Of a DNA stretch of 64,000 nucleotides, positions 1,666 to 60,539 are shown piece by piece. The notes beneath the pieces are model-generated. The model searched no databases. It had not been told where the DNA came from and saw only the letters and a list, made by a program, of their open reading frames with translations. The translations under genes were made by a program, and so were the position numbers. Origin of the DNA: Chloroflexota bacterium (GTDB lineage: Bacteria; Chloroflexota; Dehalococcoidia; Bin125); assembly GCA_028873865.1 (NCBI GenBank), contig JAPPNI010000030.1, positions 85,268 through 149,267 of the forward strand, read 5' to 3'. How positions within the stretch are numbered: position 1 is the first letter of the stretch; each line of letters starts with the position of its first letter.

Positions 1666-2268
1666 ATGCCCAGTCGCACCGGGATTCCGCAGTCCTTCGG
1701 CATCATCATGGTTTTCGCCCTGATGGCCGCTGGCATCTTCGCTTTGGTTGGCTTCGCCGTTTACAAGGGCGCCGACCGAAACGTGGTGGAGGCCAAGGCG
1801 ATCTCCGAGGTCGCCGGCGCCGAGGGCTGGGAGACCGGACTGTTCTGCATCGAAGACGGCAAGGAAGACCACCCCTCGCTCTCGCTGACCGAGCGGCCGC
1901 CCGAAACCTGCGCCGAGGCTGCCCCGCTGCCGATTGAGATCATCGACGAGGAAGCGGTGCGGGCCGGTGGAAATGCCCTGCGCGGGGCCGAGCTCTACGT
2001 CGCCAACGGCTGCCAGGTCTGCCACGGCGAGATGGGCGAGGGCATCGTGGGACCAACGATCGCCCGCACGGGCCTCGACATCCAGGGCGTGATCTCCCAG
2101 TACCGCCAGCCTCGGGGGATTATGCAGGAGTTCTCGGCTGAGGACGTGTCGGTCGAGGACATCGCTGACATCTGGACCTGGTTGCAGACCTTGCCCGCGG
2201 TCGATCCACTGATCGACCCGAACAACGACGCGCTGGGCCACGAGAACTACGGCCAGTGGGCTGAGTAG
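1666..2268 (+). CDS. membrane-anchored c-type cytochrome
   Basis: N-terminal TM helix followed by a single heme-binding CQVCHG (CxxCH) motif. Confidence 0.75.
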   Translation: MPSRTGIPQSFGIIMVFALMAAGIFALVGFAVYKGADRNVVEAKAISEVAGAEGWETGLFCIEDGKEDHPSLSLTERPPETCAEAAPLPIEIIDEEAVRAGGNALRGAELYVANGCQVCHGEMGEGIVGPTIARTGLDIQGVISQYRQPRGIMQEFSAEDVSVEDIADIWTWLQTLPAVDPLIDPNNDALGHENYGQWAE

Positions 2269-2384
2269 CTCGAGCCCCCTACCCTTCGCTTGGCCAGATC
2301 TCCTCACTCTCACGTTCCCCATTGCATGGGGTGCTGCTGAAGTTTGAGGGGATCCCTCGGCAAAGCCGCAGAGGATCGTGACTC

Positions 2385-3176: not shown

Positions 3177-3185
3177 GCACATCAG

Positions 3186-3971: not shown

Positions 3972-3976
3972 AGCGG

Positions 3977-4918: not shown

Positions 4919-5864
4919 AGCGGATCCTCGGATCCAGCACGCCGTACGAGATATCGGTCAGCAGGTTGGCCACCACGATCGCAATCGCAATCACGAGGAT
5001 CATCGCCTGCACGATCAGCAGGTCGCGTTGCAGCGCCGCCTGGACCAGCCAGCGTCCCATGCCGGGGATGTTGAAGATCTGCTCAACGATCACGGCGCCA
5101 GCGAAGACGCGCGCCAGGAGCAGACCGACGATCGTCACGACCGGGAGCAGGCCGTTGCGCAAGGCGTGCAGCGCAATCACGCGACGCTCGCGCAGCCCCT
5201 TGGCCCGCGCCGTGCGGACATAATCCTGACGCATCACTTCGAGCATGGAGGATCGCGTCTGGCGAGCAACGATTGCAGAGAGTACCCAGCCAACGACGAT
5301 GGTGGGCATGATCAGCGACTTGATCGACGCCACAGGATCCACCCAGACCCGTTCAAAGCCGGCAGCCGGGAGCACGTCCCAGGTCACGACGAGCAGCAGG
5401 ATCAGGATCAGGCCGGTCAGATAGTCGGGGATCGCGACGCCGCCTACCGAGAGCATCGTCACCAGCCGATCGGCGATCGAGTTGGGCTTGATCGCGGAGA
5501 GCACGCCGGCAGGAATACCGATCAGCATGCCAACGACGATCGTCGCGACGCCCACGTGCAACGTGTTCTGCAACCGCTGCAGCAGTTCAGGACCGATGTC
5601 CCGGTTGGTCAGCGTCGACTGGCCAAAGTCGCCCGAGGTGATGATGTCGCCAAACCAGTCGATCATCTGCTCGGGCACGGACTTATTCAGCCCCAGCCGC
5701 TCCTCGATCTGCTGGCGTCGCTCTTCCGAGATCGCCTCGCCCTCACCCGACAATGCGGCGACCGGGTCGCCGGGCAGGATCCGGAAAATAGCGAACGACG
5801 CGATCGCGACCAGGATGATCACGGCGATCGACTGGAGCACACGGACCGAGATGTATGTCCACAT
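4911..5864 (-). CDS. ABC transporter permease, DppB/OppB-like
   Basis: N-terminus MWTYISVRVLQSIAVIILVAIASFAIFRILPGDP and six TM segments typical of DppB/OppB. Confidence 0.85.
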   Translation of the reverse strand: MWTYISVRVLQSIAVIILVAIASFAIFRILPGDPVAALSGEGEAISEERRQQIEERLGLNKSVPEQMIDWFGDIITSGDFGQSTLTNRDIGPELLQRLQNTLHVGVATIVVGMLIGIPAGVLSAIKPNSIADRLVTMLSVGGVAIPDYLTGLILILLLVVTWDVLPAAGFERVWVDPVASIKSLIMPTIVVGWVLSAIVARQTRSSMLEVMRQDYVRTARAKGLRERRVIALHALRNGLLPVVTIVGLLLARVFAGAVIVEQIFNIPGMGRWLVQAALQRDLLIVQAMILVIAIAIVVANLLTDISYGVLDPRIRYG

Positions 5865-6010
5865 CGCAGTGTCTTAGACCTCCTCCTCTGGAGGAGGCAT
5901 CACGGAGTGACGGAGGGGGCTCCGGCCGAGTACAGACACTGGCGTCGTCTCGGACAGGCCCCCTCAGTCGTTCCGCGGCAGCTCCCCCAGGAGGGGGAGC
6001 GCTGCTGTCG

Positions 6011-7846
6011 TTAGACCTCGTCGCTCCACAGCCAGCGGCTCTGCCACTTGCCTTCGCCGTTGAACAACGTCTCTTCGGCGTTCTGAATGGCGTTGCGCAC
6101 ACCGGTGAAGTTGACGCCGTAGAGCATCGTGTAGAAGTGGCCTTCGCCAACGATGATGTCGTTGATTCGCGCGTAGTACGCTCGCCGCTCTTCGACATCG
6201 AAGGTCGCCCGTGCGTCTGCCACAAGCTGATCGAGTTCCGGGTGAATCGGACTGGCCGTGTCCTGGGCGGCGGTCGGGTTGTAGACGCCCGACTCGGTGT
6301 AGGCCAGCGACGCGATCCAGTCGGGCTCCGGGTAGCGGCTCCAGCCGGTCAAGGTCATGTGGTACTCGCCGTTCTCGAAGAAGGCGGGAATGAACTGGAC
6401 CAGCTCCAGCGGTTCAAAGACCACGTCAATGCCGAGCACTTCCTTGATCTGCTGGACGTACGTCTGGCAGGCGTCGATCTTGACCTGGTTGACGTAGGTG
6501 GTCAGCGAGAGTCCGCCCTCGGCGTTCAGCGCCTCGACGTCGACACCGGACATGGCGAGCAGTTCCTTGGCCCGCTCACGCCGTGCGGCGATGTCCGGGT
6601 AGGCGACCTGCGGGTTGCCCGGCACCTCGCTGTAGGCCAGCGTGCCGTTCGGCCACTGGCCGCCCAGCGCCTGAATCATCAGGTTGTTGTGCACGGCCTG
6701 GTTGACGGCCTCGGGGTGCACCGCATGCATGATCGCCAGCCGCAGGTTCATGTCCTCCAGCGGCGACTTCTTCGAGTTGAAGACCAGAATCTCCGAGACG
6801 AACGCTCCCTGCATCTCCACGATGCGCCAGTCGGGGTGCTCCTCCACCTGCGGGTTGAACTGCGGCTCGGGAATGAACATCGTGTCCAGATCGCCCGACA
6901 GACCGGTCGCGATCAGGGTCGAGTTCTCGGTGATGATGTCGTACCGCATCTCCTCGAAGTACGGCACCTGGCTGCCGGTCGCCGAGCCGGGCTCGGGGCC
7001 GCGCATCCAGTGGTTGGGGTTGCGCTTGCCCAGCACGTGCGATTGGTCGACCCACTCGACGAAGCTGTACGGCCCCGTGCCGACCGGATTGAGACCATAC
7101 TCGTCACCCAGCTCGTCCGCCGTCGGCACGTGGATCATCGCGCCGGCGCGGTCACCCAGGAGGTGCATGACGGCGGCTGAGGGCTCGGACAGCAGATACG
7201 TGGCGGTTGTGGCATCGGGCGTCTCGACCGTGTGCACCACCTCGAAGTTGGCCTTCGGCGTCGAGGCCGGGTGTGACGTCACGCGCTCGAGGTTCAGGCG
7301 AACGTCCTCGGAGCTGAACGGCTCCCCGTTGTGGTAGCTCACGCCGTCGCGCAGCGAGAAGATGATCGTCGTGTTGTCGGGGAACTCCCAGGACTCGGCC
7401 AACGAGATGTCGCCGCGCTGGTTGTTCTCCGTGTCGTGCATGACCAGGTAGTCATGGAACGGCTGGAAGAAGTAGGCGTCCGTCCCCGAGGTACCGGTGT
7501 GCGGGTCGAGGGACGTGGTATTGAGATGGACACCGGCGTTCCACATCGGCGCGATGCCCGGTCCGGCCGATGCCTGGGCGACCGCCGCCTGCTGCTCCTG
7601 CTGTTGCTGTTCGGCCGGAGCGGCCTGCTGCTCTTGCTGCTGAGCCTGCTGCTCGGCCATCGCCTGCTGCTGCTCTTGCTCCTGCTGCACCTGGGCGGCT
7701 GCCGGCTGAGCGTCGTCGTCATCGTCGCCGCAGCCAACCAGGGCGAGGCCCGCCGCGCCAACCCCGGCGCGGGCCGAGGCTCGCAACAGCGACCGCCTCG
7801 ACATCTTGCCGCGCCGCATGCGTTGCCAGTAATTGCGGGTCGTCAT
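6011..7846 (-). CDS. ABC transporter substrate-binding protein, family 5 (peptide/nickel); Tat signal and lipobox (start uncertain, ORF extends to 7945)
   Basis: SRRSLLRASARAGVGAAGLALVGC is a Tat motif plus lipobox Cys, followed by a Q/E/A-rich linker and an SBP_bac_5-like body. Confidence 0.8.
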   Translation of the reverse strand: MTTRNYWQRMRRGKMSRRSLLRASARAGVGAAGLALVGCGDDDDDAQPAAAQVQQEQEQQQAMAEQQAQQQEQQAAPAEQQQQEQQAAVAQASAGPGIAPMWNAGVHLNTTSLDPHTGTSGTDAYFFQPFHDYLVMHDTENNQRGDISLAESWEFPDNTTIIFSLRDGVSYHNGEPFSSEDVRLNLERVTSHPASTPKANFEVVHTVETPDATTATYLLSEPSAAVMHLLGDRAGAMIHVPTADELGDEYGLNPVGTGPYSFVEWVDQSHVLGKRNPNHWMRGPEPGSATGSQVPYFEEMRYDIITENSTLIATGLSGDLDTMFIPEPQFNPQVEEHPDWRIVEMQGAFVSEILVFNSKKSPLEDMNLRLAIMHAVHPEAVNQAVHNNLMIQALGGQWPNGTLAYSEVPGNPQVAYPDIAARRERAKELLAMSGVDVEALNAEGGLSLTTYVNQVKIDACQTYVQQIKEVLGIDVVFEPLELVQFIPAFFENGEYHMTLTGWSRYPEPDWIASLAYTESGVYNPTAAQDTASPIHPELDQLVADARATFDVEERRAYYARINDIIVGEGHFYTMLYGVNFTGVRNAIQNAEETLFNGEGKWQSRWLWSDEV

Positions 7847-11816: not shown

Positions 11817-13379
11817 TCACGGCATGTACGGATACGGACACGAACCCAACTGGGTCTTCAGGATCGCCTGCGCATCCTCCACGAACTCGCACAACAGCGG
11901 ACGCGTGTCCGCCGGATCGATGATGTCCTGACCCGTCGCCTCCGCCGTTCGGAAGGGCGACGCGAGGTCCTGCAGACGCTGCTCAATCTCCGCCTGCTTG
12001 GCCTCTGGATCGTCGGCCGTGTCGATTTCGCGCCGATACGCCGCCATCGCCCCGCCTTCGATGTGCATCGAACCCCAGCGGCCCGAGGGCCAGGCCCAGC
12101 GCTGGAACATCCCCGTCGGGCGGTGTTGGCACTGTCCCGCGACGCCGAAGATGCGGCCCATCACGACCGTCGCCCAGGGCATTTGCGACTGGCAGGTCGC
12201 CATCACCAGCCGCGCGCCGGCTCGCTCGATGCCCAGCTTCTCCGACTCGATCCCGACCATGAAGCCGGGCTCGTCGGCGAACGAGATCATCGGCAGATGG
12301 AACATGTCGCAGAGCTGGATCAGGCGGATCACCTTGCTCCCGCCCTTGACGTCGGTCGAGCCGCCCTCGTGCATCGGGTTGTTGGCCATCACCCCGACCG
12401 GATAGCCGTTGATCCGCGCCAGACCCGTGATCCGCGAACGACCGTAGAACGGCGCGATCTCGAAGAACGAGCCCTGGTCCACGCACCAGTTGATCGCACG
12501 ATGGCCGTCGTAGGCGCGTCGCCGGTCACGCGGCACGAGGCGACGCAGGCGCTCTTCGCGCCGGTTCGGGTCGTCGGTTGGCTCGATCCGCTGGGGCATC
12601 TCGTAGACGCTCTGCGGCAGGTAGCTGAGGAACTGCCGAATCTGGCGGAAGGCGTCCTCCTCGTCTTCGGCCAGGTTGTCGACCGAGCCCGACTGGTAGA
12701 CGTGGATCCGCTCGTCGCCGAGGTCCTCTTTGGTCACGTCGTAGCCCAGCGCCGCCTTGACCACCGGAGGGCCGCCGGGAAAGAGCTGCGAGATGCCCTT
12801 GACCATGATCGTGAAATGGGCCATGCAGGCGTTGACCGCCGGCAGGCCGGCGACTGAGCCCATCACTGCCGAGACGACCGGCACCACCCGCAACAGGTCA
12901 GTGTCGAAGGTCGACCACATGTTGCCGTCGGGCAGATAGGTGCGGCCCAGCGTCTCGAATCCGCGCACCGAGCCGCCTGCTGCGTCGAGCATCCGCACGT
13001 AGGGCACGCGCCACTCGAGCGCCCGCTGGTTCGAGCGCTTCTCCGAGCCCAGACCGTCCGACCCGTCGCCGCCGCCCGATCCGCCGCGCACCGTGAAATC
13101 GCCGGCCGAGACCACGACCTTGCGCCCATTGACCTTGCCGAATCCCTCGATCGCGCCCTTCGGCGTGAACCCGACCAGCTCCCCCGCCTCGTCGTAGGAC
13201 GGCCGCCCGACCAGCGACATGAACTCCGTCAACGACCCCGGATCCAGCAGCCCATCAATCCGCTCATTGACCAGCAGCTTGCCCCGCCGCCGCTGCCGAG
13301 CCACCCCTTCTGGCCCACCGCGACCCTTGGCCAACTCCTTGCGCTTGGCGATCTCCGCGATCTCACGTTCCCACGTCAT
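11817..13379 (-). CDS. pccB: acyl-CoA carboxylase carboxyltransferase subunit (propionyl-CoA carboxylase beta chain-like)
   Basis: Carboxyl transferase domain across the full length (MTWEREIAEIAKRKELAKGRGGPEG..., GGSVRGFETLG..., MVGIESEKLGIERAGARLV). Confidence 0.85.
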   Translation of the reverse strand: MTWEREIAEIAKRKELAKGRGGPEGVARQRRRGKLLVNERIDGLLDPGSLTEFMSLVGRPSYDEAGELVGFTPKGAIEGFGKVNGRKVVVSAGDFTVRGGSGGGDGSDGLGSEKRSNQRALEWRVPYVRMLDAAGGSVRGFETLGRTYLPDGNMWSTFDTDLLRVVPVVSAVMGSVAGLPAVNACMAHFTIMVKGISQLFPGGPPVVKAALGYDVTKEDLGDERIHVYQSGSVDNLAEDEEDAFRQIRQFLSYLPQSVYEMPQRIEPTDDPNRREERLRRLVPRDRRRAYDGHRAINWCVDQGSFFEIAPFYGRSRITGLARINGYPVGVMANNPMHEGGSTDVKGGSKVIRLIQLCDMFHLPMISFADEPGFMVGIESEKLGIERAGARLVMATCQSQMPWATVVMGRIFGVAGQCQHRPTGMFQRWAWPSGRWGSMHIEGGAMAAYRREIDTADDPEAKQAEIEQRLQDLASPFRTAEATGQDIIDPADTRPLLCEFVEDAQAILKTQLGSCPYPYMP

Positions 13380-13485
13380 CGGGCTGCTCCGTCCTTGGTG
13401 ATCTTGCAGCAGGTTACGAGGCCCGTGTTCCGGGGACGAACAGCGGATGACAAGTAGGCGTATCGAATCGGGCGGCACTTCTGGC

Positions 13486-26083: not shown

Positions 26084-27493
26084 ATGGTCACCCGATCCGC
26101 CCGCTCTTTCGGCGACCCTCACTCGGATCACCGAGCCATCTGGCAGCGCACTTTGCAAATCCTCGGCGACTCGCTTGATCGCGAGACCTTCGAGACCTGG
26201 TTTGCCGACACGCACGCGATCGAGGTTCGTGGCGGCGTGCTGCATGTCGGTGTGCCGACCGTGATCAAGCTGGAAACGCTGCGCGGCAGCTACTACCCGC
26301 AGCTCGCCTCGGCGGTCCGTCAAGCCTCGGGCCGATCCATGGAGATTGAACTGCGCGTTGCCTCGCCGCCGGAACCGGTCACGCAAGCTCTCGATCTCCC
26401 CTCAGGCGACGAATCTCAGCCGTCCGCCGAGCGCGGCCAGCCAATCCAGCCGGCGCGCAGCCGTCCGTCCGTCCTCAATCAGGCAACGTTCGAGCGCTTT
26501 GTCGAAGGCACATCCAACCAGATCGCCGTCACCGCATCTCGCCGAGTCGCGTTCCATCCCGGCGAAGACACGAACCCACTGTTCATCTACTCCAACTCCG
26601 GCCTGGGCAAGACCCACCTGCTGCATGCCATCGCACACGTGACCATGCAGTCGCACTACACAGTGCTGGTCGACACGGAGTCTTATGTCCGCCAGTTCGT
26701 CAACAGCGTCGGCGCCGGCGAGCGCGCCGCCTTCCAGGAAAAGTATGAGTCCGCTGAAGTCCTGATCGTCGATGACGTGCAGAAGCTGGGCGGCAAAGTC
26801 CAGACCCAGGACGAGTTCTACAACGTCTTCAACGCGCTGCACCAGCGCGGCCGGCAGATTGTGATCGCCTCCGACCTGCCGCCCAGGTTGTTGACCGGCC
26901 TCAGCGAACGTCTCGTCACGAGATTCGAGGGCGGCTTGGTGGTGGAAATCAACCAGCCCGATGTCGAATTGCGAATGGCAATCCTGCAGCGCAAGATTCG
27001 CGACTGGGGCATGGTTGTTGACGAGCCGACGATTCAGATGATCGCTGAGCGCGGCGGGACGAACATCCGCTCCCTGCTCGGCGGCCTGCAGCGAGTGCGC
27101 GTCTTCGCCGAAAGCGAGCGATCGCTCGTTACGCCAGGCATCGTGATGCGGGCCTTGGCCGGGCATGCGCAGGAAGAAACGCGCAAGGCCAAACCCACCG
27201 TGGCAGAACTGATCGCAGCGGCCTCCGACATCACCGGCGTCGCACCCGAGTTGTTCACTGCCACTCGCAAGGATCGGCGAACGGCCAGGGCTCGCCAGTT
27301 GGTCATGTACCTGGCCTGCCAACACACCGACCTCTCACTCAACTCGATTGGCGAGGCACTGGGCGGACGCGACCACTCGACCGTTCTGCACGGACGCGAC
27401 AAGGTCGAGCGGCTGCTCGCCGACTCTAGCGACGCAGAAGCCCACTGGTGGATCCAGCAGATCTCTGAGATTCGCTCCCGCCTCCACCTCTAG
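26084..27493 (+). CDS. dnaA: chromosomal replication initiator protein DnaA
   Basis: AAA+ Walker A LFIYSNSGLGKTHLLHAIAH and a C-terminal domain IV (LVMYLACQHTDLSLNSIGEALGGRDHSTVLHGRDKVERL). Confidence 0.9.
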   Translation: MVTRSARSFGDPHSDHRAIWQRTLQILGDSLDRETFETWFADTHAIEVRGGVLHVGVPTVIKLETLRGSYYPQLASAVRQASGRSMEIELRVASPPEPVTQALDLPSGDESQPSAERGQPIQPARSRPSVLNQATFERFVEGTSNQIAVTASRRVAFHPGEDTNPLFIYSNSGLGKTHLLHAIAHVTMQSHYTVLVDTESYVRQFVNSVGAGERAAFQEKYESAEVLIVDDVQKLGGKVQTQDEFYNVFNALHQRGRQIVIASDLPPRLLTGLSERLVTRFEGGLVVEINQPDVELRMAILQRKIRDWGMVVDEPTIQMIAERGGTNIRSLLGGLQRVRVFAESERSLVTPGIVMRALAGHAQEETRKAKPTVAELIAAASDITGVAPELFTATRKDRRTARARQLVMYLACQHTDLSLNSIGEALGGRDHSTVLHGRDKVERLLADSSDAEAHWWIQQISEIRSRLHL

Positions 27494-41869: not shown

Positions 41870-44203
41870 TCAGCGCGGACTGATCGGCTGTGGAGGCGGC
41901 TCGCCAGCTGACTGCCTCGCTGTTAACCCCGCCACGATGCCGCTCTCGATCAACTCCTCGATCGCCGAGTCATCGAGGCACAACACCTCGTTGAGAATCT
42001 CGACCGTGTGCTCGCCCATCCGAGGCGCCGGTCGCAGACATGATGCGGGCCGCCGGCGCAGCCGCCAGGGGAATCCCTGATATTGACGAGTACCGCTATC
42101 GGGATGCGTCAGATACAGCCACCAATCCCGAGCCGCCAGGTGCGGATCCCGTAGATGGGTCAGGGTCGAATGGACAGCCGCCGCCGGCACACCGACCGCC
42201 TGCAGGCGGTGCTGCAGCGTCAGCGCGTTCCAGCTGCGAGTCCACTCGCTCAGGGCAGACTCCAACGCAACCTCATCGGCTTTGCGACCCCTCGCCGTCC
42301 GCCACTCGGGACGATCGATCCCGGCAACCTCTGCAAGCCGCAGCCAGGTTTCGTCGCCTCGAACCGAAATCGCGATCCACTCGTCGTTACCGTCGACGCC
42401 ATCGGCGCAGCGGAAGCACTCGTGTGGCGCCGCGTCTGGTATCCGATTCCCATCACGCGCCGGCATCTCCTGCCCCGCCGAGGCGGCCAGAAGATATTCG
42501 TCGATGTATGCGACCGCGGACTCAAACATCGAACCTTCGACATGTACGGCCGCGCGTCCCCGCTGCGCCTGCCACGCCGCCGCCAGGGCCGAGGCCGCCA
42601 TCTGCGCGCCGACGATCGGGTCGGCCTGCATCGTGCCCAGCATCACCGGCTTGTCGCCCCGGTAGCCAAGTAACAGATCCCAGCCCGCGTTGCCCTCGGT
42701 CGTGCCGCCGTTGGCGCGGAAGTTGTCGTATGGACCGCCGGTGCCGAAACCGGAGAAGGAGACCAGTGCGATATGCGGATTGACCTCGCGCATGTGCTCG
42801 TGGGTCAGCCGCAGGTTTTGCAGCACGCGCGGACGAAAGTTCTCCAGCACCACGTCAGCGCGAGCGATCAAATCGAGCGCCAACTTGCGTCCCTTGTCCG
42901 TATCGAGGGCAATCGAGATCGTTCGCTTGCCCCGATTGGCCATGTTGAAGTTGGGCCGCACATTCAGGGGATGCGCATCCGGTGAAGCGACCCGCATCGG
43001 ACCGCTCGCCTCGTAGCGCCAGAGATCAGGGCGCTTCGGCCCCTCCACCTTGATCACCTCTGCGCCCAGATCGCTGAGAAGTCCCGACGCGTACGGTCCC
43101 AGCCATGCATGGGTGAAGTCGACCACGCGCAAACCATCGAGCGGTCCCGTCGAACGTTCAGGTTGCCGCCGCTGCGCGAATCGGTCCGTGCGCTCCGCCT
43201 GCCCCTCAACTTCCGTGACACGCATCGCTCGGCCGGCTCCGGTGAGACCGTTGTTGTCGCGAAAGAAATCAATCGCCTTGAGCTGCGGATCCTCTAGCAG
43301 TTGCTGCGCCGAGCGGTGCATCGCCATCACCGAGCCCAGCTCCGACAGCTTCGCCCAGATCGTCGCCGCATCCAGCGACTCGACGATTGGCCGCACATAC
43401 TCCAGCGACGGTTCTCGTTCGGCAAAGCGTCCTTCACCTTCCAGCAGTTCACTTGGAGGTGGATCACAGCCGAAGGCGATCGGCGCATTGCGAAGCGTCT
43501 CCCTCGACCAGGGCGAGAGCGTGATGTAGCCGTCGGCCGTCTCCATCACCTCAGCCCAGCCTGGCGTCCCTCCGACTCGTAGCAGCGCCTCGCCCGAGAA
43601 CTCCGAACGCAGCGACATGATCAGGGTTGAGACAGCCTCGTGCGACGACAGCTCAATCCACTCGCCCCGGCCTGAGTGCAGACGCTCGAGCAGCGCCGCA
43701 AACGCCGCCACGGCGCCCAGGATGCCAATCGCCCGAGGAATGATCGCCGCTGGAGCGGCCAGCGGCTCCTGCGGCGCGACGCCATTCGTCCCGGCAAAGC
43801 CCGACAACGCCTGGATGATCAGGTCGTCGGACAAGTAGTCGGAGTACGGACCGTCGGTCCCAAACGGCGACGAGTGGACGACAATCAACTCCGGGAACTC
43901 GCCAGCGATGCCGTTCAGTTCCGCAAGCGGCGCGTCCGTCACGAACACATCCGCAGCGGAGAGCTTGGCGCGCCAGTCGCCCGATCCAGGTGACTTGCCG
44001 ACCATCAGCGACTCACGCAGCAACGAAACAGTCTCGCCGTCTCGTTCGATCGTCGGCGCGGCAACCTTCAAGCGCGAATCTTCGGCTTCGAAGACCGAGA
44101 CCCGCGCTCCCCAGCGCGCGAACTCAAGCGCGCATGCCGCCGCAGGTACGTCACGGCTGTACTCGACGACGCGGATGCCGCTCAGCAGATTGCCGTCCGA
44201 CAC
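41870..44203 (-). CDS. family III CoA-transferase (CaiB/BaiF), single-chain tandem fusion of two CoA-transferase domains
   Basis: Two consecutive CoA_transf_3 N-termini (GIRVVEYSRDVPAAACALEFARWGARV and LDGLRVVDFTHAWLGPYASGLLSDLGAEVIKVE); 777 aa against ~400 for a single domain. Confidence 0.8.
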   Translation of the reverse strand: MSDGNLLSGIRVVEYSRDVPAAACALEFARWGARVSVFEAEDSRLKVAAPTIERDGETVSLLRESLMVGKSPGSGDWRAKLSAADVFVTDAPLAELNGIAGEFPELIVVHSSPFGTDGPYSDYLSDDLIIQALSGFAGTNGVAPQEPLAAPAAIIPRAIGILGAVAAFAALLERLHSGRGEWIELSSHEAVSTLIMSLRSEFSGEALLRVGGTPGWAEVMETADGYITLSPWSRETLRNAPIAFGCDPPPSELLEGEGRFAEREPSLEYVRPIVESLDAATIWAKLSELGSVMAMHRSAQQLLEDPQLKAIDFFRDNNGLTGAGRAMRVTEVEGQAERTDRFAQRRQPERSTGPLDGLRVVDFTHAWLGPYASGLLSDLGAEVIKVEGPKRPDLWRYEASGPMRVASPDAHPLNVRPNFNMANRGKRTISIALDTDKGRKLALDLIARADVVLENFRPRVLQNLRLTHEHMREVNPHIALVSFSGFGTGGPYDNFRANGGTTEGNAGWDLLLGYRGDKPVMLGTMQADPIVGAQMAASALAAAWQAQRGRAAVHVEGSMFESAVAYIDEYLLAASAGQEMPARDGNRIPDAAPHECFRCADGVDGNDEWIAISVRGDETWLRLAEVAGIDRPEWRTARGRKADEVALESALSEWTRSWNALTLQHRLQAVGVPAAAVHSTLTHLRDPHLAARDWWLYLTHPDSGTRQYQGFPWRLRRRPASCLRPAPRMGEHTVEILNEVLCLDDSAIEELIESGIVAGLTARQSAGEPPPQPISPR

Positions 44204-44216: not shown

Positions 44217-45029
44217 CTAGGAGTTGCCCGGCTTCTGCAACTTCGCCAGCGCCTGTGCGACAGGCGAGAGCTGGCGTTTGCCCTGCATCATGCGCGGGTC
44301 GGGCAGGCCGAACCGAGCGCCGGTGGCGTAGGTCATAAAGCTGGCGTTGATGTGCGTGGTGAACCCTTGAGCGTCCTGCATGTTGTTGATCGAGTGCTTG
44401 ATCTGGCGCAGCGACATCGGCGTCCGCTGGGCGACCTCGCCCGCATAGGCCAGCGTCTTCCGCTCCAGCGCCTCGGCCGGATAGACCTGGTTGACGAATC
44501 CCAGTTCCTGAGCTTCACGAGCCGGGATGAACCGGTTCTGGAACAAGATCTCCTTCGCCTTGCGCACGCCCAGGTCCCACGGCGCCGAGAAGTACTGCGT
44601 GTGCGAGGGCAGGAACAGCGCGTCGTCGGAGGCGAAGATGAGATCCATCGAGGCGGCCACCATCCAGCCGCCGAAGATGCATTTGCCATGCACCATCGCG
44701 ATTGTCGGCTTGGGATTGTTGCGCCAGCGCATCGTGTTCGCAATGCGGGTGTCCCGCTGACGGTCGAACACGCCGACGAAATCCTCTGCCCAGCCGCGAA
44801 TCTCGCGATCGGCGATCTCAGATGGCGAGCCGAGATCGTGCCCGGCGGAGAAGTCGGGGCCATTGCCCGAGAGCACGATGACCAACACCTCGGGGTCGTC
44901 CGCCGCCTCTTGGAAGGCTCGGTCGATTTCCTCCAGTAGCACGCGCGACTGCGCGTTCCGGTACTCAGGCCGATTCATGATCACGCGAGCCACCGGTCCC
45001 GGCTCGTAGACCACCTCGTGATACGTCAT
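44217..45029 (-). CDS. enoyl-CoA hydratase/isomerase family protein
   Basis: VARVIMNRPEYRNAQS ... GPDFSAGHDLG are crotonase-fold motifs. Confidence 0.8.
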   Translation of the reverse strand: MTYHEVVYEPGPVARVIMNRPEYRNAQSRVLLEEIDRAFQEAADDPEVLVIVLSGNGPDFSAGHDLGSPSEIADREIRGWAEDFVGVFDRQRDTRIANTMRWRNNPKPTIAMVHGKCIFGGWMVAASMDLIFASDDALFLPSHTQYFSAPWDLGVRKAKEILFQNRFIPAREAQELGFVNQVYPAEALERKTLAYAGEVAQRTPMSLRQIKHSINNMQDAQGFTTHINASFMTYATGARFGLPDPRMMQGKRQLSPVAQALAKLQKPGNS

Positions 45030-45894: not shown

Positions 45895-45973
45895 TCCTTG
45901 CCGCTGAACTCAGTACCCATCAGGCGCGCATCGGACTAAACGCTACTCTCTTGTCAGGTTGAGAGGTGCGGGA

Positions 45974-47032
45974 ATGGCCTTTGAGTACACCGGCGTCGAT
46001 TTGCCGATTCGGGAGAAGACGATCGCCTCCCAACGCATGAGCTGGGAGATGATCGCCAATCCCGGCCGCTGGTGGACCGGCGCGGAACGCGTCGAGATCG
46101 CGAGAATCGGACGTGCGGCGCGAGACTTCGAGGCAGTCGGTAGCGAGATCCTGCCCGAGGCCGCCGTCTACTCAATCCAGAAGCTGGTCGTTGACAACGC
46201 CAACCTCAACCGCGAGTGGTACGACGAGATCATGGCGTCCGAAGGCATAACCGAGGACCGGTACGTCGAGCTGGTCGCGGTGGTCGTCCACTCGTTCTCG
46301 ATCGACGAGTTCCATCGCGCCCTCGGCCTCGCCCTCGAACCACTGCCCGACCCCGTGAGTGGCGAACCCACGCGACAACGACCGGCTCAGGCCGAGCAGC
46401 GCTACTCCTGGCCGCCGATCGTCCCCAAGGCTGGACTCAACCCCGGCGACGAGATGCTCTATGGACCAATGGAGTGGGGCGCCAACGTCATCTCTGCGCT
46501 CTCCCTGATTCCCGAGAACGTGCGCTGGCTGCACGATCTCTCTGAGGGCCACTACCTCTCCTTCGCCGAAATGCGCCAGCCCGACCCGCTGCGGGCCATC
46601 TCTCGCTCGCAGATCGAGCTGATCGCGGCCCGAGTCTCGGCGCTCAACGAATGCTTCTATTGAACCGCCTCCCACGTGCGCATGCTCCGTGAGAGCAGCC
46701 AACGCAGCGGAACCATCGACAATCTCAACCTCCAGGGCACGGTCAATCCCGACGCCGACAGCGGCGTCCCCCAGGGCAGCCTGCTGACCGCCTTCGCCGA
46801 GGCCGCCGTTCGCCAGACCGACGCTCTGCCCGGCCTGCGCGATCAGATCGTCTCGGAGCTCGGCGTACAAGAGCTCGTTGACGCCGCCGGCGTCGTGGCC
46901 AACTTCCAGCGCATGGTTCGGATCGCCGATGGCTGCGGCATCCCGCTCGACGAATTCACCAAAGACGCAACCGACGATGTCCGCGACGAACTTGGTATCC
47001 ACGAGTACGCGTCGGCCGCCAATACGGCATAG
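45974..47032 (+). CDS. AhpD/CMD-family putative selenoprotein (copy 1): ORFs 45959..46663 and 46676..47032 are in one frame, joined by UGA 46661-46663 read as selenocysteine (NECFY-U-TASH)
   Basis: Both ORFs are in the same frame. A single TGA sits exactly where the second Cys of the CMD/AhpD motif N-x-C-x-Y-C-x-x-x-H belongs. A paralogue shows the identical arrangement, and a hairpin follows 19 nt downstream. Confidence 0.55.
46683..46697 (+). other. SECIS-like hairpin (UGCUC-CGUGA-GAGCA) 19 nt after the UGA of copy 1
   Basis: Folded by eye; the GU-containing apical loop matches the bacterial SECIS pattern. Confidence 0.3.
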
Positions 47033-47047
47033 AGCTCGGAGTTCGCC

Positions 47048-48142
47048 ATGACTACGACGACTGCCTCGTTCGCGTACACCAGCACCACTTGGCCTGTGCT
47101 CGATCGAATGGCCGCAGCGCACCGGCGCAGTTGGAAGATGCTGGCCGCGCCCGGAGAGTGGTGGACCGGCGCCGAGCGGATCAGTATCGCTGCCGAATGC
47201 CGACGCGCCTCGGCGCGGGTGGATGGCCTGCCCGATCCCGGACCTGGACCGGCCGAACTGCCCGAGGCCGCCGTGTTCGCCATCCACAAGCTGATCGGCG
47301 ACCTACCCAACGTCACCCGCGACTGGTACGACGAGACCATCAGCGCCGAGGGCATGTCCGACGCGCACTACATCGAGTTGCTGGGCGTCGTCGTGCACAT
47401 CTGGTCGGTCGACGAATTTCATCGAGCGCTGGACATCGACCTGGAACCGCTCCCTGAGCCGCTCGCGGGTGAACCGACGCAGATTCGTCCCACAGGGGCA
47501 AAGGCGCACGGCAGTTGGCCGCCGACGGTCTGGCCGGACGACCTGGATGAACGGGACGCGGACATCTACGGCGGCGCCGATCGCGCTGCCAACGTCCGCG
47601 CCGCGATGAGTCTGCATCCCGACAGCGTCCGTTGGCTCACCGATCTGTTCGACGCGCACTATCTGAGCTGGATCGAGATCCAGGCGGTGCAGGAGCCGTT
47701 CCGCGTCCTCACCCGCCCCCAACGCGAGCTGGTCGCGGCCCGCGTGTCGGCGCTCAACGAGTGCTTCTATTGAACGATCTCCCACGTGATGCTGCTCGGT
47801 CGGAGCAGCGAAGGCAACGACGCGCTGAACCTCAACGGAACGGTGCGCAATGAAGTCGACAGTGGAGTCGAGCACGGAGAAATCCTGTTGCGCTACTCCG
47901 ACGCGGCAGTCGGCCGAACTCCGGATCTCAGGGCCGCGCGTGACGCGCTCGACATCGCCATGGGACCCGACGCCGTCGTCGATTGCGCCGCAACCATCGC
48001 CAACTTCCAGAGAATGGTGAGAATCGCCGACGGCTGCGGCATCCCCCTGGACCCGTTCTCCAGAGAGGAATCCGCGAAGTGGCGAGACGGCCTCGGGATC
48101 GACGATTTCCGCAGCCGAGGGAACACCTTCGACGAGAACTGA
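47048..48142 (+). CDS. AhpD/CMD-family putative selenoprotein (copy 2): ORFs 47048..47773 and 47786..48142 are in one frame, joined by UGA 47771-47773 (NECFY-U-TISH)
   Basis: Same architecture as copy 1 with conserved context around the UGA, followed by a 7-bp-stem hairpin. Confidence 0.55.
47791..47809 (+). other. SECIS-like hairpin (GCUGCUC-GGUCG-GAGCAGC) 17 nt after the UGA of copy 2
   Basis: Perfect 7-bp stem with apical loop GGUCG; the position relative to UGA fits a bacterial SECIS. Confidence 0.4.
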
Positions 48143-48149
48143 GCGAGCG

Positions 48150-48638
48150 TTACTCGATCGTCCGCAGCAACCGCGCGATCTCAATCGCCGCCTGCGCCGC
48201 CTCTTCGCCCTTGTTGCCCGCCGAACCGCCTGCCCGCGCCATCGCCAGGGCGACGGTCTGCGTCGCCAGCACCTCGAAGATCACGGGCACTCCGGTATCA
48301 AGGCCTACCCGCGCGATCCCCTGCGTCGCGCCGTCGACGACCAGTCGGTAGTGGTCTGTTTCCCCCAGGATCACCGCACCCAGGCAGATCACGGCGTCGA
48401 AGCGCCCGGTGCGGGCGCATTTCTGCGCCGCGATCGGGATCTCGAATGCGCCCGGGACCCAGTAGATGTCGATCTCGTCCGTGTCGGCCCCGTTCTCCTC
48501 GAGGTGATCGATGCAGCCATCGAGCAGCTTGCTCGTCACGAAGTCGTTGAACTTGCTCACCACCACGGCAAAGCGCAGACCGCTGGCTGGACCATGCTCG
48601 GGGTCGGGATTCGCGGCGCCGTCGTGGACTCTTGGCAT
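48150..48638 (-). CDS. ribH: 6,7-dimethyl-8-ribityllumazine synthase
   Basis: LRFAVVVSKFNDFVTSKLLDGCIDHLEENG...DIYWVPGAFEIP matches the RibH family. Confidence 0.9.
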   Translation of the reverse strand: MPRVHDGAANPDPEHGPASGLRFAVVVSKFNDFVTSKLLDGCIDHLEENGADTDEIDIYWVPGAFEIPIAAQKCARTGRFDAVICLGAVILGETDHYRLVVDGATQGIARVGLDTGVPVIFEVLATQTVALAMARAGGSAGNKGEEAAQAAIEIARLLRTIE

Positions 48639-55439: not shown

Positions 55440-57824
55440 ATGCTCAGCGATTATCGAATTCTCGATCTGACGGACGATCGCGGCCTGATCGGCGGAATGA
55501 TCCTGGCCGACCTCGGCGCCGATGTGATCGCGATCGAGCCTCCCGGCGGCAATGCCGCCCGCCAACGCGGCCCCTTCGCCGACGGCTCCAACCAGGGCGG
55601 TATCGAAGACTCCCTGACCTGGCAGTCCTACGCCCGAGGCAAGCGCTCGGTCGTCCTGGATCTGGAGTCCGACGACGGTCGCGCACAGTTCATTGAGCTC
55701 GCGCGCTCGGCCGACGCGGTCATCGAGTCGGCCGACGTCGGCGGCATGGATTCTCTCGGCCTCGGCTATGAGACGCTCTCTTCCGTCAACCCTGGCCTGG
55801 TCTACGTCGCCATCACCCCCTTTGGCTCCACCGGACCCAAGGCCGGCTGGGCCGCGACCGACATCACCGTCGCCGCCGCAGCCGGACCGATGATCCAGAG
55901 CGGCGACAAAGACCGACCGCCGCTCCGAGTCGGATTGCCGCAGACCGCCCTACACGCCGGCGCGGAGGCGGCGCTGGCCGTCCTCATGGCCCTGCACGAG
56001 CGCCAGCGTTCCGGACGTGGACAGTTCGTCGATGTCTCCGCCCAGGCCGCCTACGCCCAGGCGACGCAGTCCGGAATCGTTGCCGCTGCCAACAACTCCG
56101 GCCAGTTCACACGCTCAGCCGTCGGCGCAGCCCTCGGCCCACTTGAGATCCGGCTCTTCTGGCCCTGCAAGGATGGCCACGTCGCGATCACATATCTGTT
56201 TGGCGCGGCGATCGGCCCCTTCACCGACCGACTCATGCAGTACGCCCTCGAGGAGGGCTACTGCGACCAGGCCACCCGCGACAAGGACTGGCTCAACTAC
56301 ACCAACCTCATCCTCAGCGGACAGGAACCGATCAGCGAGTACCTCCGCTGCTGTGACGTGATCGGCGCGCTCTGCGCCGACAAGACCAAGGCCGAGCTGT
56401 TCCAGGTCGCGCAGGAGCGTCGCCTCCTCCTGGTCCCGGTTTCAACGATGGACGACCTCGATGAAAACGAGCACCTCGCCGCCCGCTCCTACTGGCGCGC
56501 AGTCGAGCGCGACGGTCAGACGGTTAAGTTTCCAGGACCGTTCGCCCGTCTCTCCGAGACGCCGATCCAGTACGGCCGCTCCGCGCCGATGCTCGGCGAA
56601 CACACCGATGAAGTCCTCGCCGAAACGCGTCCCGCAGCGAGTCTGCACGCCGCCAACGGCTCCGGCGACTCGGCGCCGACCGCCCCACCCCTCTCCGACC
56701 TCAACATGCTTGACCTGATGTGGGTCATGGCCGGACCGGCTGGGACGCGAGCGCTCTGCGACTTCGGCGTCAACACGGTGCGAATCGAATCCAGCACCCG
56801 GATCGACACCGCCCGCACCCTGCAGCCGTTCATCGACGACGAAGCCACCCAACCCGAGGGCTCGTCGATGTTCCACAACATGAACGCCGGCAAACGCATG
56901 ATCACCGTCGACCCGGCCAACCCCGAAGGCCGCAAACTGATCCTCGACCTCGTCCGCTGGGCCGACATCGTGACCGAGTCCTTCACGCCCCGCGCCATGC
57001 GCGGCTGGGATCTGACCTGGGACACCATCCACGAGGTCAACCCGCGCGCGATCATGATGTCCTCCTGCCTCATGGGACAGGATGGCCCCCTGGCCGAGTT
57101 CGCGGGCTTCGGTAATCTCGCCGCCGCCTTCGCCGGCTTCACCCCGCTCTGCGGCTGGCCCGACCGCTCGCCTGCCGGACCCTTCGGCGCATACACCGAC
57201 TACGTCGCCCCGCGCTTCGCCTCCGCCGCCCTCTTGGCCGCCCTCGACGAGCGCGACCGCACCGGACAAGGCCAGTACATCGACATCTCGCAGATGGAAG
57301 CCGCCATCCACTTCCTCACCCCAGCCTTCCTCCAGTACCGCCTCACCGGCGAGAAGTGGCTCGCCGACGGCAACAACGACCCCGACATGTCCCCCCACGG
57401 CGTCTTCCCCTCCCAGGGCGAAGATCAATGGGTCGCCATCGCCTGCCGAGACGACGCCGACCGCGCCGCCCTGGAATCCGTGCTCAACGGCCAGTCGTTG
57501 GAAGAATGGACCGCCGCCCGCTCGAACGAGGAAGCCATGAACGCGCTCCAGGCCGTCGGCGTGCCCGCCCACGCCGTCCAGGACTCCGCCGCCTGCTTCG
57601 CCGACCCCCAGCTCCAGCACCGCAACCACTTCGTCCAGCTCGCCCATCCGACGCAAGGACAGTCGGTCGTCGAGGGAGCCAGGATCGTCTTCGGCCGTAC
57701 CCCCGCCGGCCGACCCCAGGTCGCCCCGACCATGGGCGCCGACAACGACACCGTCCTCCGTGACCTCCTCGGCTACACCGACGAGCAGGTCATCGAGCTG
57801 GTAGCGTCTGGCGCGTTGCAGTAA
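55440..57824 (+). CDS. family III CoA-transferase (CaiB/BaiF), single-chain tandem fusion of two domains; paralogue of 41870..44203
   Basis: MLSDYRILDLTDDRGLIGGMILADLGADVIAIE and a second LNMLDLMWVMAGPAGTRALCDFGVNTVRIE CoA_transf_3 start; 794 aa. Confidence 0.8.
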   Translation: MLSDYRILDLTDDRGLIGGMILADLGADVIAIEPPGGNAARQRGPFADGSNQGGIEDSLTWQSYARGKRSVVLDLESDDGRAQFIELARSADAVIESADVGGMDSLGLGYETLSSVNPGLVYVAITPFGSTGPKAGWAATDITVAAAAGPMIQSGDKDRPPLRVGLPQTALHAGAEAALAVLMALHERQRSGRGQFVDVSAQAAYAQATQSGIVAAANNSGQFTRSAVGAALGPLEIRLFWPCKDGHVAITYLFGAAIGPFTDRLMQYALEEGYCDQATRDKDWLNYTNLILSGQEPISEYLRCCDVIGALCADKTKAELFQVAQERRLLLVPVSTMDDLDENEHLAARSYWRAVERDGQTVKFPGPFARLSETPIQYGRSAPMLGEHTDEVLAETRPAASLHAANGSGDSAPTAPPLSDLNMLDLMWVMAGPAGTRALCDFGVNTVRIESSTRIDTARTLQPFIDDEATQPEGSSMFHNMNAGKRMITVDPANPEGRKLILDLVRWADIVTESFTPRAMRGWDLTWDTIHEVNPRAIMMSSCLMGQDGPLAEFAGFGNLAAAFAGFTPLCGWPDRSPAGPFGAYTDYVAPRFASAALLAALDERDRTGQGQYIDISQMEAAIHFLTPAFLQYRLTGEKWLADGNNDPDMSPHGVFPSQGEDQWVAIACRDDADRAALESVLNGQSLEEWTAARSNEEAMNALQAVGVPAHAVQDSAACFADPQLQHRNHFVQLAHPTQGQSVVEGARIVFGRTPAGRPQVAPTMGADNDTVLRDLLGYTDEQVIELVASGALQ

Positions 57825-57849: not shown

Positions 57850-58749
57850 ATGGCAACCCACCACCCCGAGCGAATCATCGAAGGCAACGGCATCTAAATC
57901 TGCACCGACGCCTTCGGCGATCCCGACGACCCCTGCATCCTCCTCGTCATGGGCGCCGGCGCATCCATGCTCCGCTGGGAAGTCGACCTCTGCAGCCAGC
58001 TCGCCGACGGCGGACGCTTCGTCATCCGCTACGACAACCGCGACACCGGCAAGACCACCAGCTGCCCGCTCGGCGAGCCCAACTACACCCTCGCCGACAT
58101 GGCCGCCGACGGCGTCGCCGTCCTCGACGCCTACGGCATCGAGAAAGCGCACATCGTCGGCGCATCGATGGGCGGCATGATCACCCAGATGATCGGCCTC
58201 AATCACCCCGACCGCGCCCTCACCCTCACCCCGATCATGTCAACCCCCGACCCCGGCGCGACCCTCGAAGCCTCCGACGCCTTCGACTCCGGTGGCCACC
58301 GCGAAACCCTCTCCCCGCCGACATCCGAAATCCTCGAGGCCATCGGCGCCATGGCCGGCCTCGACTGGACCGACCGCGACACCGTCATCGGCGTCCAGAT
58401 GCAGATGGTCCGCGCCCTCGCCGGCTCGAAGTACCCCGACGACGGCTCGCTCGGCGAGGACTTCTTCGCCGCCGACTTCGACCGCGCCATCAACTACGCC
58501 AGCAGCTTCAACCACGGACCCGCCATCGCCGGCTCCGAGCCCTGGTCGCACCGCCTCAAGGACCTCGACATCCCCACCCTCGTCATCCACGGCAACGACG
58601 ACCCCATCCTCCCCTACGACCACGGACAGGCCCTCCACGCCGCCATCCCCGGCTCGAAAATGCTCACCATGGACGGCGTCGGCCACGAACTCCCCCGACC
58701 CGTCTGGGACACCGTCATCCCCGCCATCCTCGATCACACCAGCAGCTAG
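57850..58749 (+). pseudogene. alpha/beta hydrolase interrupted by an in-frame TAA at 57895-57897 (MATHHPERIIEGNGI*ICTDAFGDPDDPCILLVMGAG...)
   Basis: ORFs 57850..57897 and 57949..58749 share a frame. The conserved hydrolase N-terminus (ERIIEGNGI-x-ICTDAFGDP) spans the stop codon. Confidence 0.5.
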
Positions 58750-59336
58750 GACGACCGCCGATACACCGACATCACCACCCCGTTCCCCGTCGACCCCGTT
58801 CGCAACAGCTCCAGACTCCCCGGCACAACCCCATCCGCAAACAACCGCTTCCCATCTCCGACCACGACCGGAAACACCCACAGCCGAAACTCATCGATCA
58901 GCTCATGCGCCAGTAGCGTCTGGATCAACTCCGCGCTCCCATGCACCTGGATCAACGGACCATCCCCCGACTTCAGCCGCCCGACCTCCCCGACCAGATC
59001 ATCGCCAATCCGAGTCGCCGGCCCCCACGCCAACGGATGCGACGCCGTCCGCGCCGCCACATACTTGTGACCCCCATTCAGCCGCGCCGCCACCGGATCC
59101 TCTTCGGGATCCACGTTGGGCCAGTGCGAGGCAAACACGTCGTACGTCCGCCGACCGAACAGCAAATCGTACGGCGCCGACATCGCCTCCGCATACACCT
59201 GCGGCATCACCTGCTCCCAGTACGGAGCGCCCCAGCCGCCAGCCGCAAACCCGCCCGACGCGTCCTCCTCCGGACTCGTCGGACTCTGCATCACCCCGTC
59301 CAGGGTCACAAAACTCAGAATCGCCAGCTCACGCAT
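58746..59336 (-). CDS. dihydrofolate reductase-like / RibD C-terminal domain family protein (YwjB-like)
   Basis: MRELAILSFVTLDGVMQSP ... LLFGRRTY ... FRLWVFPVVVGDGKRLF. Confidence 0.75.
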   Translation of the reverse strand: MRELAILSFVTLDGVMQSPTSPEEDASGGFAAGGWGAPYWEQVMPQVYAEAMSAPYDLLFGRRTYDVFASHWPNVDPEEDPVAARLNGGHKYVAARTASHPLAWGPATRIGDDLVGEVGRLKSGDGPLIQVHGSAELIQTLLAHELIDEFRLWVFPVVVGDGKRLFADGVVPGSLELLRTGSTGNGVVMSVYRRSS

Positions 59337-59380
59337 CACGAGCCCCAGCCTACCCGCCCCATCCACGGACCGTCCGCCTA

Positions 59381-59457
59381 AACTGGCTGTGGGTCCTTAG
59401 CTCAGTTGGCCAGAGCAGCGGACTTTTAATCCGAAGGTCCTGGGTTCGAGTCCCAGA
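59381..59457 (+). tRNA. tRNA-Lys (anticodon UUU), genome-encoded CCA
   Basis: Folded by hand: 7-bp acceptor stem GGGTCCT/AGGACCC, D arm GCTC/GAGC, anticodon loop CTTTTAA, T arm CTGGG-TTCGAGT-CCCAG, discriminator A then CCA. Confidence 0.85.
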
Positions 59458-59543
59458 GGACCCACCACGTTCACCCAGGCCCAGACGATTCGGCGCGGTT
59501 AGGGCAGGGTCGTATGCTTGGCCGTCCGAACGTGAGAATCTAG

Positions 59544-60539
59544 GTGCGCGCTCAAGGACGAAGGGGATTTGTCGTGGACGAGGAGACATTCATAAGGGGC
59601 CTTAGGCAACACGGCGTGCGAGCTGAGTCGTCAATTCCTGCCAAGATGAGGGAGCTCCTTGACTGTGAGCAGATGGAGCTTGAATCCGTTTTCGTGGAGG
59701 CGAAGCCCAATCTCACCATGACTCTTGTACATCGGGTGGAACTCGGGCAGGGAGATATCCAGGAACGCCCGTCCTCCATTGTGAAGTACTCTCCCGCTCG
59801 CTACGCGCCAGCACGCACCGAACGCCTCAAGATTGCGACAGCGCGTCACTACAGGGAGTTCGAGGGCGGTGGGCCTGGCATTCGGGACGAGCACGATGCT
59901 GTCTATCGGCAATCCATCAAGAGTTTCTTCGAGCGCTGGAATCCCGATGCGTTAACGCTGCTGGCTCCATTCTCCACAACATTCACAGCAGACTCGCGAG
60001 ACTATACGGTGGAAGTCGTTCCGAGCGGAACAGTCAACCGTGCCGCCGACGGCGAGTGGATCTATTGCGCGTCCCTTGAGCCTCGGACGAAGGCCGAGCA
60101 GGACATGATGTTCCAAGAGTTTTCCGCCGATAGTATGACTCGATTTCAGCACCCTACCGATTTGGCCCGAGAGTTGGGCAGCGCCTTCTCGCGTTCTGCA
60201 TCGGCGTTTCCTGTGACATTCGATACCGACGTTGACCAGCTTCAAATCTCCGCCATGAGGGAGCAATCCTCGTTGGAGAAGATTGTACATGTCTACCATG
60301 GACCGGTGGCATACACCGATGACCCGGAGCATCTGATTGAGCCGATCCCTAGCCTTCTACAAGGGTCAGCCGTGCCATTCCTGAAGTCGCCGGAGTTCGG
60401 TCATCAGAGGGAGTATCGATTCGTAATCAGCACAATTGGAGCCCCGAACGAGGAGGTCTTGTACGTGCCCATAACTGACGACCTTAGAGACCTAGTTTTG
60501 GGCACGGAGTACCAATCCGTCTCGGTGGCGGACCGATAG
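59544..60539 (+). CDS. hypothetical protein (331 aa) on a lower-GC islet next to tRNA-Lys
   Basis: Long ORF with roughly 53-55% GC against ~67% in the flanks; no recognisable motif. Confidence 0.55.
   Translation: MRAQGRRGFVVDEETFIRGLRQHGVRAESSIPAKMRELLDCEQMELESVFVEAKPNLTMTLVHRVELGQGDIQERPSSIVKYSPARYAPARTERLKIATARHYREFEGGGPGIRDEHDAVYRQSIKSFFERWNPDALTLLAPFSTTFTADSRDYTVEVVPSGTVNRAADGEWIYCASLEPRTKAEQDMMFQEFSADSMTRFQHPTDLARELGSAFSRSASAFPVTFDTDVDQLQISAMREQSSLEKIVHVYHGPVAYTDDPEHLIEPIPSLLQGSAVPFLKSPEFGHQREYRFVISTIGAPNEEVLYVPITDDLRDLVLGTEYQSVSVADR

Follow-up and report, generated by a model that had tools for sequence, protein, structure and literature searches.

Two loci in the window, a stretch of 64,000 nucleotides of a Chloroflexota bacterium analyzed as a whole, encode proteins with two class III CoA-transferase domains in one chain, here called C1 and C2. 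Both are probably two-subunit (A/B) class III CoA-transferases condensed into one chain, in which an aspartate in the C-terminal half would serve a single CoA-transfer site. C1 and C2 are ordinary members of a known two-domain class; 'double' CoA-transferases are a large group whose architecture already has a name, and are no new invention. The surrounding window resembles core chromosome, with dnaA, obg, PNPase, dapB, asd, coaBC, coaX, MurT/GatD, a riboflavin operon and a sigma/anti-sigma pair.

Two reading frames with two domains each

The two genes and their halves lie at the following positions.

41870..44203, minus strand: C1, two-domain class III CoA-transferase, 777 aa (NCBI MDE2967849.1)
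43184..44203, minus strand: C1 N-half, aa 1-340, A-type non-nucleophile domain
41870..43153, minus strand: C1 C-half, aa 351-777, B-type domain, predicted to be catalytic
55440..57824, plus strand: C2, two-domain class III CoA-transferase, 794 aa (NCBI MDE2967863.1)
55440..56657, plus strand: C2 N-half, aa 1-406, A-type domain, closest to BbsEF chain A
56679..57824, plus strand: C2 C-half, aa 414-794, B-type domain, closest to BbsEF chain B

A preliminary description of this DNA had placed two proteins of ~780-795 aa at these loci, and its coordinates proved exact. Each gene is one uninterrupted open reading frame with zero internal stops; C1 starts at a GTG codon with an AGGGA ribosome-binding-like motif upstream, and C2 starts at an ATG codon with a GGAGG motif 9 nt upstream. 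Both proteins are already annotated in the metagenome-assembled genome (MAG) as single products, under the NCBI name 'CoA transferase [Chloroflexota bacterium]'.

The Pfam profile CoA_transf_3 (PF02515) matched twice in C1 and twice in C2. When the halves were scanned separately, all four exceeded the gathering cut-off of 23.3 bits, with 262 and 268 bits for the N- and C-halves of C2, 296 bits for the C-half of C1 and 89 bits for its N-half, which is diverged and ~50 aa shorter. The earlier statement that both proteins carry two complete domains therefore holds for C2 and is slightly generous for C1, whose N-half aligns with profile positions 111-344 only. Both proteins have the class III fold, consisting of a Rossmann-like large domain and a small domain.

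C1 and C2 align collinearly, N-half to N-half and C-half to C-half, with 26% identity, and the alpha/beta hydrolases encoded next to them are 22% identical. Calling the two loci a duplicated module, as was done earlier, is thus misleading, as these values do not reflect a recent duplication. Eleven longest-contig sizes were common to the homolog lists of C1 and C2, with relatives down to ~68-75% identity; judged from these shared sizes, the pair appears to be old and stably co-inherited on one contig in relatives.

The fusions are genuine

Split A/B gene pairs occur in relatives and break exactly at the linker, an arrangement that would also be expected if each locus consisted of two adjacent genes joined through sequencing or assembly error. 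This reading is extremely improbable and is already refuted by conservation data. A word-indexed homolog search returned 114 (C1) and 118 (C2) full-length homologs (at least 700 aa) spread over many independent assemblies, and the same fused length recurred in more than 100 homologs at identities down to 27%. When 1.84 billion cluster representatives were searched exhaustively, 3,340 matches were obtained at E<=1e-30; among the best 150 of these, 137 were at least 700 aa long. The public NCBI gene calls are likewise fused. The frameshift check proposed in the preliminary description accordingly came out in favor of genuine fusions at both loci.

One half of each protein has lost the catalytic aspartate

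Class III CoA-transferases use a conserved aspartate (D169 in Frc and CaiB, D165 in Mct), which passes through anhydride and thioester intermediates. We located the corresponding columns in an alignment of Frc with 60 half-sequences and BbsEF fragments, using as reference a Frc sequence confirmed to be identical to PDB 1p5h.

Frc D169 column, C-halves: D528 in 'QADPI' (C1), D587 in 'YTDYV' (C2); BbsEF chain B has Asp in 'YTDHV'
Frc D169 column, N-halves: Pro156 (C1), Ala170 (C2); BbsEF chain A has Tyr
Frc E140 column, C-halves: Gly in both; BbsEF chain B has Gly
Frc E140 column, N-halves: Asp in both, D127 at 43823-43825 (C1) and D141 at 55860-55862 (C2); BbsEF chain A has Asp
42620-42622, minus strand: codon of the predicted nucleophile C1 Asp528
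57198-57200, plus strand: codon of the predicted nucleophile C2 Asp587

Both C-halves thus carry an aspartate at the Frc D169 column and both N-halves lack it, which answers in the affirmative the question, raised earlier, of whether one half has lost the catalytic residue. D528 was invariant among the 56 aligned C1 homologs, as was D587 among the 51 aligned C2 homologs. In BbsEF, the chain B aspartate aligned with D587 is residue 178 by residue count in the alignment; the chain A residue of that number is Ala. PDB entry 9fol bears the title 'BbsEF, D178-CoA adduct + succinate'; as D178 carries the CoA adduct, the trapped nucleophile of BbsEF aligns with D528 and D587. The motif 'G-Y/S-D...Q-A-x-x-G' was also considered as the site of the catalytic aspartate and was rejected, since alignment to Frc assigned it to the E140 column.

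Conservation differed between the two proteins. In C1, mean identity to the query was 48% for the N-half versus 58% for the C-half, and the faster evolution of the N-half fits a scaffold role. In C2, the halves were equally conserved (66% versus 67%), leaving room for a second function in the N-half. Asp141, at the Frc E140 column, was invariant in the C2 family alignment, which, together with the even conservation, hints that this domain is more than a scaffold.

Fused and split relatives form one family

When one genome per species was scanned, 80 loci were recovered, with fused genes in Dehalococcoidia, Pseudomonadales, Bradyrhizobium, Candidatus Poriferisodalis, Binataceae, Mycobacterium and Phenylobacterium, among others. 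A tblastn search of plasmids added further fused and split relatives. For 86 related loci, domains were typed with an HMM built from the halves: type A is acidic at the E140 column but lacks Asp at the D169 column, type a has neither acidic residue, type B has Asp at the D169 column with Gly or Ala at E140, and type S has both acidic residues in one chain.

Fused ORFs (n = 33): 24 A-B, 5 a-B, 3 B-A, 1 S-B
Adjacent same-strand gene pairs (n = 21): 14 A-B, 3 a-B, 2 B-A, 2 B-B
Lone single-domain genes (n = 52): 37 S

The Asp-less domain preceded the Asp domain in 29 of the 33 fused ORFs and in 17 of the 21 split pairs, and the order was reversed in 3 of the 33 fused ORFs. A rough neighbor-joining tree of B-type domains (n = 65) intermixed fused and split forms and required at least 14 changes between them, a figure that is only indicative, given the crude tree and the chance that frameshifts in MAGs account for some of the 'split' calls. 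Together with the occurrence of both domain orders, this intermixing points to repeated fusion or fission. Judged from their sequences, fused and split forms are one family with a common asymmetry.

Predicted structures match the two chains of BbsEF

AlphaFold models computed from alignments of 56 (C1) and 51 (C2) sequences were confident, with a mean pLDDT of 93.7 and a pTM of 0.95 for C1 across the whole chain, including the diverged N-half, and a pLDDT of 91.2 and a pTM of 0.93 for C2. The linker of C2 (aa 404-411) fell below a pLDDT of 50 and is predicted to be disordered, as the sole such stretch in the protein. Foldseek placed the C2 halves on chains B/D (TM 0.90-0.91) and chain A (TM 0.85) of BbsEF at 34-35% identity. 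With phmmer, the N-half of C2 aligned end to end with chain A of 9fn0 and the C-half with chain B, which was also the best match of the C1 C-half among solved chains. The covalent pseudo-dimer that the preliminary description had presumed is thereby supported: each chain has two class III domains, and its N- and C-halves correspond to BbsEF chains A and B. No solved chain longer than 456 aa was among the PDB matches of C1 or C2, so none of them represents a fused form. At ~35% identity to BbsEF, substrate specificity is not transferable.

Conserved partner genes differ between the two loci

The genes next to C1 and C2 are listed below.

44217..45029, minus strand: crotonase-family enoyl-CoA hydratase, 270 aa, directly upstream of C1
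45094..45894, minus strand: alpha/beta hydrolase 1, 266 aa
54531..55364, plus strand: class II aldolase-family gene, upstream of C2
57850..58749, plus strand: alpha/beta hydrolase 2, macrolide-esterase-like, 25 nt after C2

Both neighborhoods were found as first described, with a crotonase and an alpha/beta hydrolase beside C1 and an interrupted alpha/beta hydrolase beside C2. C1 closes a minus-strand unit that runs from alpha/beta hydrolase 1 through the crotonase, whose stop codon lies 13 nt from the C1 start. Relatives with 79% and 58% identity retain the crotonase-C1 pair, at an unchanged chromosomal position, and in a relative with 38% identity the two genes are divergently oriented; hydrolase 1 is part of the C1 operon in the closest relative only. 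Two further minus-strand frames, 46172..47287 and 47303..48184, were considered as operon members and dismissed: they have no family matches and are shadows of plus-strand AhpD-like genes.

Downstream of C2, hydrolase 2 has an in-frame TAA at 57895-57897 (codon 16), where relatives have GAG, so that the reading frame of the C2-linked hydrolase is interrupted in the window itself. An intact 294-aa version follows C2 homologs with 89-90%, 70% and 55% identity. A functional link of the class II aldolase to C2 is doubtful, because their adjacency is kept only in relatives with 89-90% identity. The conserved partners are therefore the crotonase for C1 and the alpha/beta hydrolase for C2.

The best matches of both hydrolases are lactone- or ester-opening families, at scores below cut-off: hydrolase 1 reached 100 bits against 3-oxoadipate enol-lactonase (cut-off 256) and hydrolase 2 reached 270 bits against a macrolide esterase model (cut-off 420). 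In two Dehalococcoidia relatives (L017 and L021), the split A and B genes are separated by a hydrolase gene. These hydrolases are nearer to hydrolase 1 than to hydrolase 2, and a link to a specific hydrolase subfamily was rejected; the hydrolases that co-occur with the transferases differ in subfamily, and the link holds at superfamily level only.

No acyl-CoA synthetase was found near C1 or C2. The co-occurrence with 3-hydroxypropionate bi-cycle genes suggested as a check was not borne out in the annotated part of the window: none of these genes was among the ~40 window ORFs scanned with Pfam, a set that covers the window outside 29-37 kb apart from some of the shorter ORFs.

Proposed mechanism and alternative readings

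In the mechanism that we favor, the C-terminal B-type domain would supply the nucleophilic aspartate (C1 D528, C2 D587). Following the established class III mechanism, this residue would attack a donor acyl-CoA to form a mixed anhydride and would then be transiently thioesterified by CoA, which would finally pass to the acceptor carboxylate. The N-terminal A-type domain, its aspartate lost, would most likely act as the obligatory interlocking partner, and its small domain may close over the single active site as a lid. In that case each chain would hold one working CoA-transfer site, compared with two per homodimer. Homology and the pTM values suggest both the interlocked topology and this composition of the active site. 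At the level of a pathway, a lactonase- or esterase-like alpha/beta hydrolase might release a free carboxylic acid, which the transferase would activate without ATP; at the C1 locus, the adjoining crotonase might process the resulting (enoyl/hydroxyacyl)-CoA.

The acidic residue that A-type domains retain at the Frc E140 column, and that does not vary in the C2 family, and the equal conservation of the two C2 halves could also be explained by bifunctional enzymes resembling DddD. The C-half would then transfer CoA, and the N-half or a shared pocket would catalyze a second reaction (lyase or isomerase) on the bound acyl-CoA, with DMSP, a carnitine-like onium compound or a different leaving-group substrate as examples. 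The crotonase adjoining C1, comparable to CaiB/CaiD-type pairs, points in the same direction. However, the A/B residue pattern of BbsEF is identical, and BbsEF is, to our knowledge, described solely as a CoA-transferase. Landry et al. 2017 found DddD as the top match of some CaiB paralogs of SAR202 Chloroflexota and suggested novel lyase functions (PMC5395668), yet DddD forms the outgroup to the other two-domain proteins in the analysis of Dong et al. (PMC6006322), and within ~10 kb of C1 or C2 there is neither a BCCT-type transporter nor a dddB/dddC-like dehydrogenase nor a LysR regulator. On balance, we consider a DddD-like bifunctional enzyme unlikely. The more specific proposal that the Asp-less N-half holds a second ligand-binding or catalytic pocket, making C1 and C2 bifunctional transferase/lyases or transferase/isomerases for an undescribed substrate, is a long shot; if it were true, candidate substrates would include sponge-derived onium compounds and lactone-derived hydroxy acids. 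A thioacid-forming reaction like that of PtmU4, in which sulfur is transferred to an acyl-CoA to give a thiocarboxylic acid, is very unlikely: a thioacid cassette has, by definition, a PtmA3-like acyl-CoA synthetase no more than two genes away (PMC6006322), which is absent from the flanks of C1 and C2, and no sulfur-carrier genes were seen around either gene.

The single-site, single-chain A/B transferase thus remains the probable reading, although the conserved Asp-less domain of C2 might do more than complete the dimer. The class is common in Chloroflexota and in other uncultured lineages of sea and soil, where, as Landry et al. suggest, unusual carboxylic acids are channeled into beta-oxidation by CoA-transferase paralogs (PMC5395668); finding the substrates of the crotonase-linked and hydrolase-linked clades would therefore be of some ecological value.

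Comparison with known CoA-transferases

Two-domain class III CoA-transferases have been known since 2007 and are very common. A fused example is Rv1866 of M. tuberculosis, which the literature mentions only in passing. Scores against the NCBIfam equivalog models were as follows.

CaiB: C1 123, C2 161 (cut-off 413)
Frc: C1 167, C2 241 (cut-off 504)
Succinyl-CoA:mesaconate CoA-transferase: C1 163, C2 322 (cut-off 700)
Mct: C1 40, C2 78 (cut-off 725)
Succinate-glutarate CoA-transferase: C1 220, C2 318 (cut-off 750)

Neither C1 nor C2 reached the cut-off of any of these models. NCBIfam appears to include no model for DddD, as none was listed for either protein. The comparison with Mct that had been recommended gave scores far below the cut-offs for both the Mct and the succinyl-CoA:mesaconate models. 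C1 and C2 share the fold and, in their C-halves, the catalytic aspartate column with the homodimers Frc, YfdW, CaiB, SUGCT and Mct. Homodimeric enzymes of this class, in contrast, combine the acidic residues of the E140 and D169 columns in one chain and have two identical active sites per dimer.

The premise of the preliminary description that the family consists of obligate homodimers is incomplete, given the two-subunit BbsEF (PDB 9fn0) and the fused two-domain enzymes DddD and PtmU4, a class already described by Dong et al. 2018 (PMC6006322). These authors counted 2,401 two-domain homologs in 2017, included PtmU4, QbsK and YtkF in the class and named DddD as the only two-domain member characterized before PtmU4 (PMC6006322); C1 and C2 fall within their definition. 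As in DddD, a DMSP CoA-transferase/lyase found in marine and symbiotic bacteria, two CaiB-like domains of ~400 aa each are joined in one chain. Compared by architecture and gene context, C1 and C2 differ from DddD in having no adjoining genes for DMSP transport or catabolism, and from the PtmU4 thioacid cassette in having no PtmA3-like synthetase within two genes.

The best match in both sequence and structure is BbsEF, the benzylsuccinate CoA-transferase (34-35% identity, TM 0.85-0.91). BbsEF is encoded in the bbs beta-oxidation operon, whereas C1 and C2 have no bbs genes nearby and are accompanied by a crotonase, hydrolases and an aldolase instead. BbsEF consists of two separate polypeptides, which in C1 and C2 are fused via a linker of ~10-20 aa. 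In all three, one domain or subunit type lacks the nucleophilic aspartate (A) and the other carries it (B). This yields a simple rule for reading such proteins: one domain has the nucleophilic Asp together with Gly or Ala at the E140 column, and the other shows the reverse. The common asymmetry links the two-domain class to BbsEF-type heteromers and predicts one transfer site per chain.

Domain order and fusion of the CoA-transferases

Examination of related genomes carrying homologs of C1 and C2, the window's 777- and 794-aa two-domain class III CoA-transferases, revealed that domain order is not uniform. In five loci the Asp-bearing B-type domain precedes the Asp-less A-type one; the two are encoded as a single fused open reading frame in three of these (L038, L055 and L056) and as a split gene pair in two (L041 and L042). 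This reversed order in some relatives indicates that the two-domain proteins originated by more than one fusion event.

Gene arrangement varied in other respects as well. In L017 (4541-8354) and L021 (5049-8430), both from Dehalococcoidia MAGs, the C2-clade CoA-transferase is split, and its A-type and B-type subunit genes are separated by an alpha/beta hydrolase gene. A Pseudomonadales MAG (L007) carries two distinct fused two-domain CoA-transferases less than 5 kb apart, one falling in the C1 clade and the other in the C2 clade on a crude neighbor-joining tree of 65 B-type domains:

4899-7244 (+), fused two-domain CoA-transferase of L007
9893-12220 (-), fused two-domain CoA-transferase of L007

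Genes flanking C1 and C2

The alpha/beta hydrolase gene downstream of C2 (57850..58749, +) contains an in-frame TAA at codon 16 (57895-57897), a position occupied by GAG (Glu) in four relatives, and is otherwise intact and well conserved. The TAA reflects either a nonsense mutation of very recent origin or a MAG consensus error.

On the C1 side, the window carries hydrolase 1, an alpha/beta hydrolase gene, and two tandem AhpD-like genes:

45959..47032 (+), first AhpD-like gene
47048..48142 (+), second AhpD-like gene

Both matched NCBIfam NF041238, 'AhpD-related CFYUT (seleno)protein', at 210 bits each (cut-off, 175 bits). An in-frame TGA inside the ECFY-*-T motif of each (46661-46663 and 47771-47773) marks both codons as candidates for selenocysteine. 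A hairpin of 5-7 bp lies ~20 nt 3' of each TGA, with a folding energy not better than that of shuffled sequence, and neither sel genes nor tRNA-Sec were found within the window. In two relatives (L001 and L002, ~950-5000), the position of hydrolase 1 and the AhpD-like genes is taken by a GmrSD_N / HEPN_RiboL-PSP (and NYN) gene set that looks like a defence island.

Wider genomic context

Three further genes were identified elsewhere in the window, including another of the crotonase family, none of which adjoins C1 or C2:

557..1444 (+), crotonase-family gene
11817..13478 (-), acyl-CoA carboxyltransferase-domain gene
62385..63977 (-), squalene-hopene cyclase

The dnaA region suggests that the window may lie near a replication origin; cumulative GC skew had no turning point at dnaA:

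26084..27493 (+), dnaA, preceded by type III pantothenate kinase and coaBC and followed by obg

Finally, the window's lowest GC content (0.60 versus about 0.65) was found around a tRNA gene and the methylase gene following it:

59391..59467 (+), tRNA-Lys(TTT)
60603..61991 (+), DNA methylase fused to HNH endonuclease

Two open reading frames overlapping the tRNA (58292..59605 and 59544..60539) had no family match. This stretch may represent an element integrated at the tRNA.
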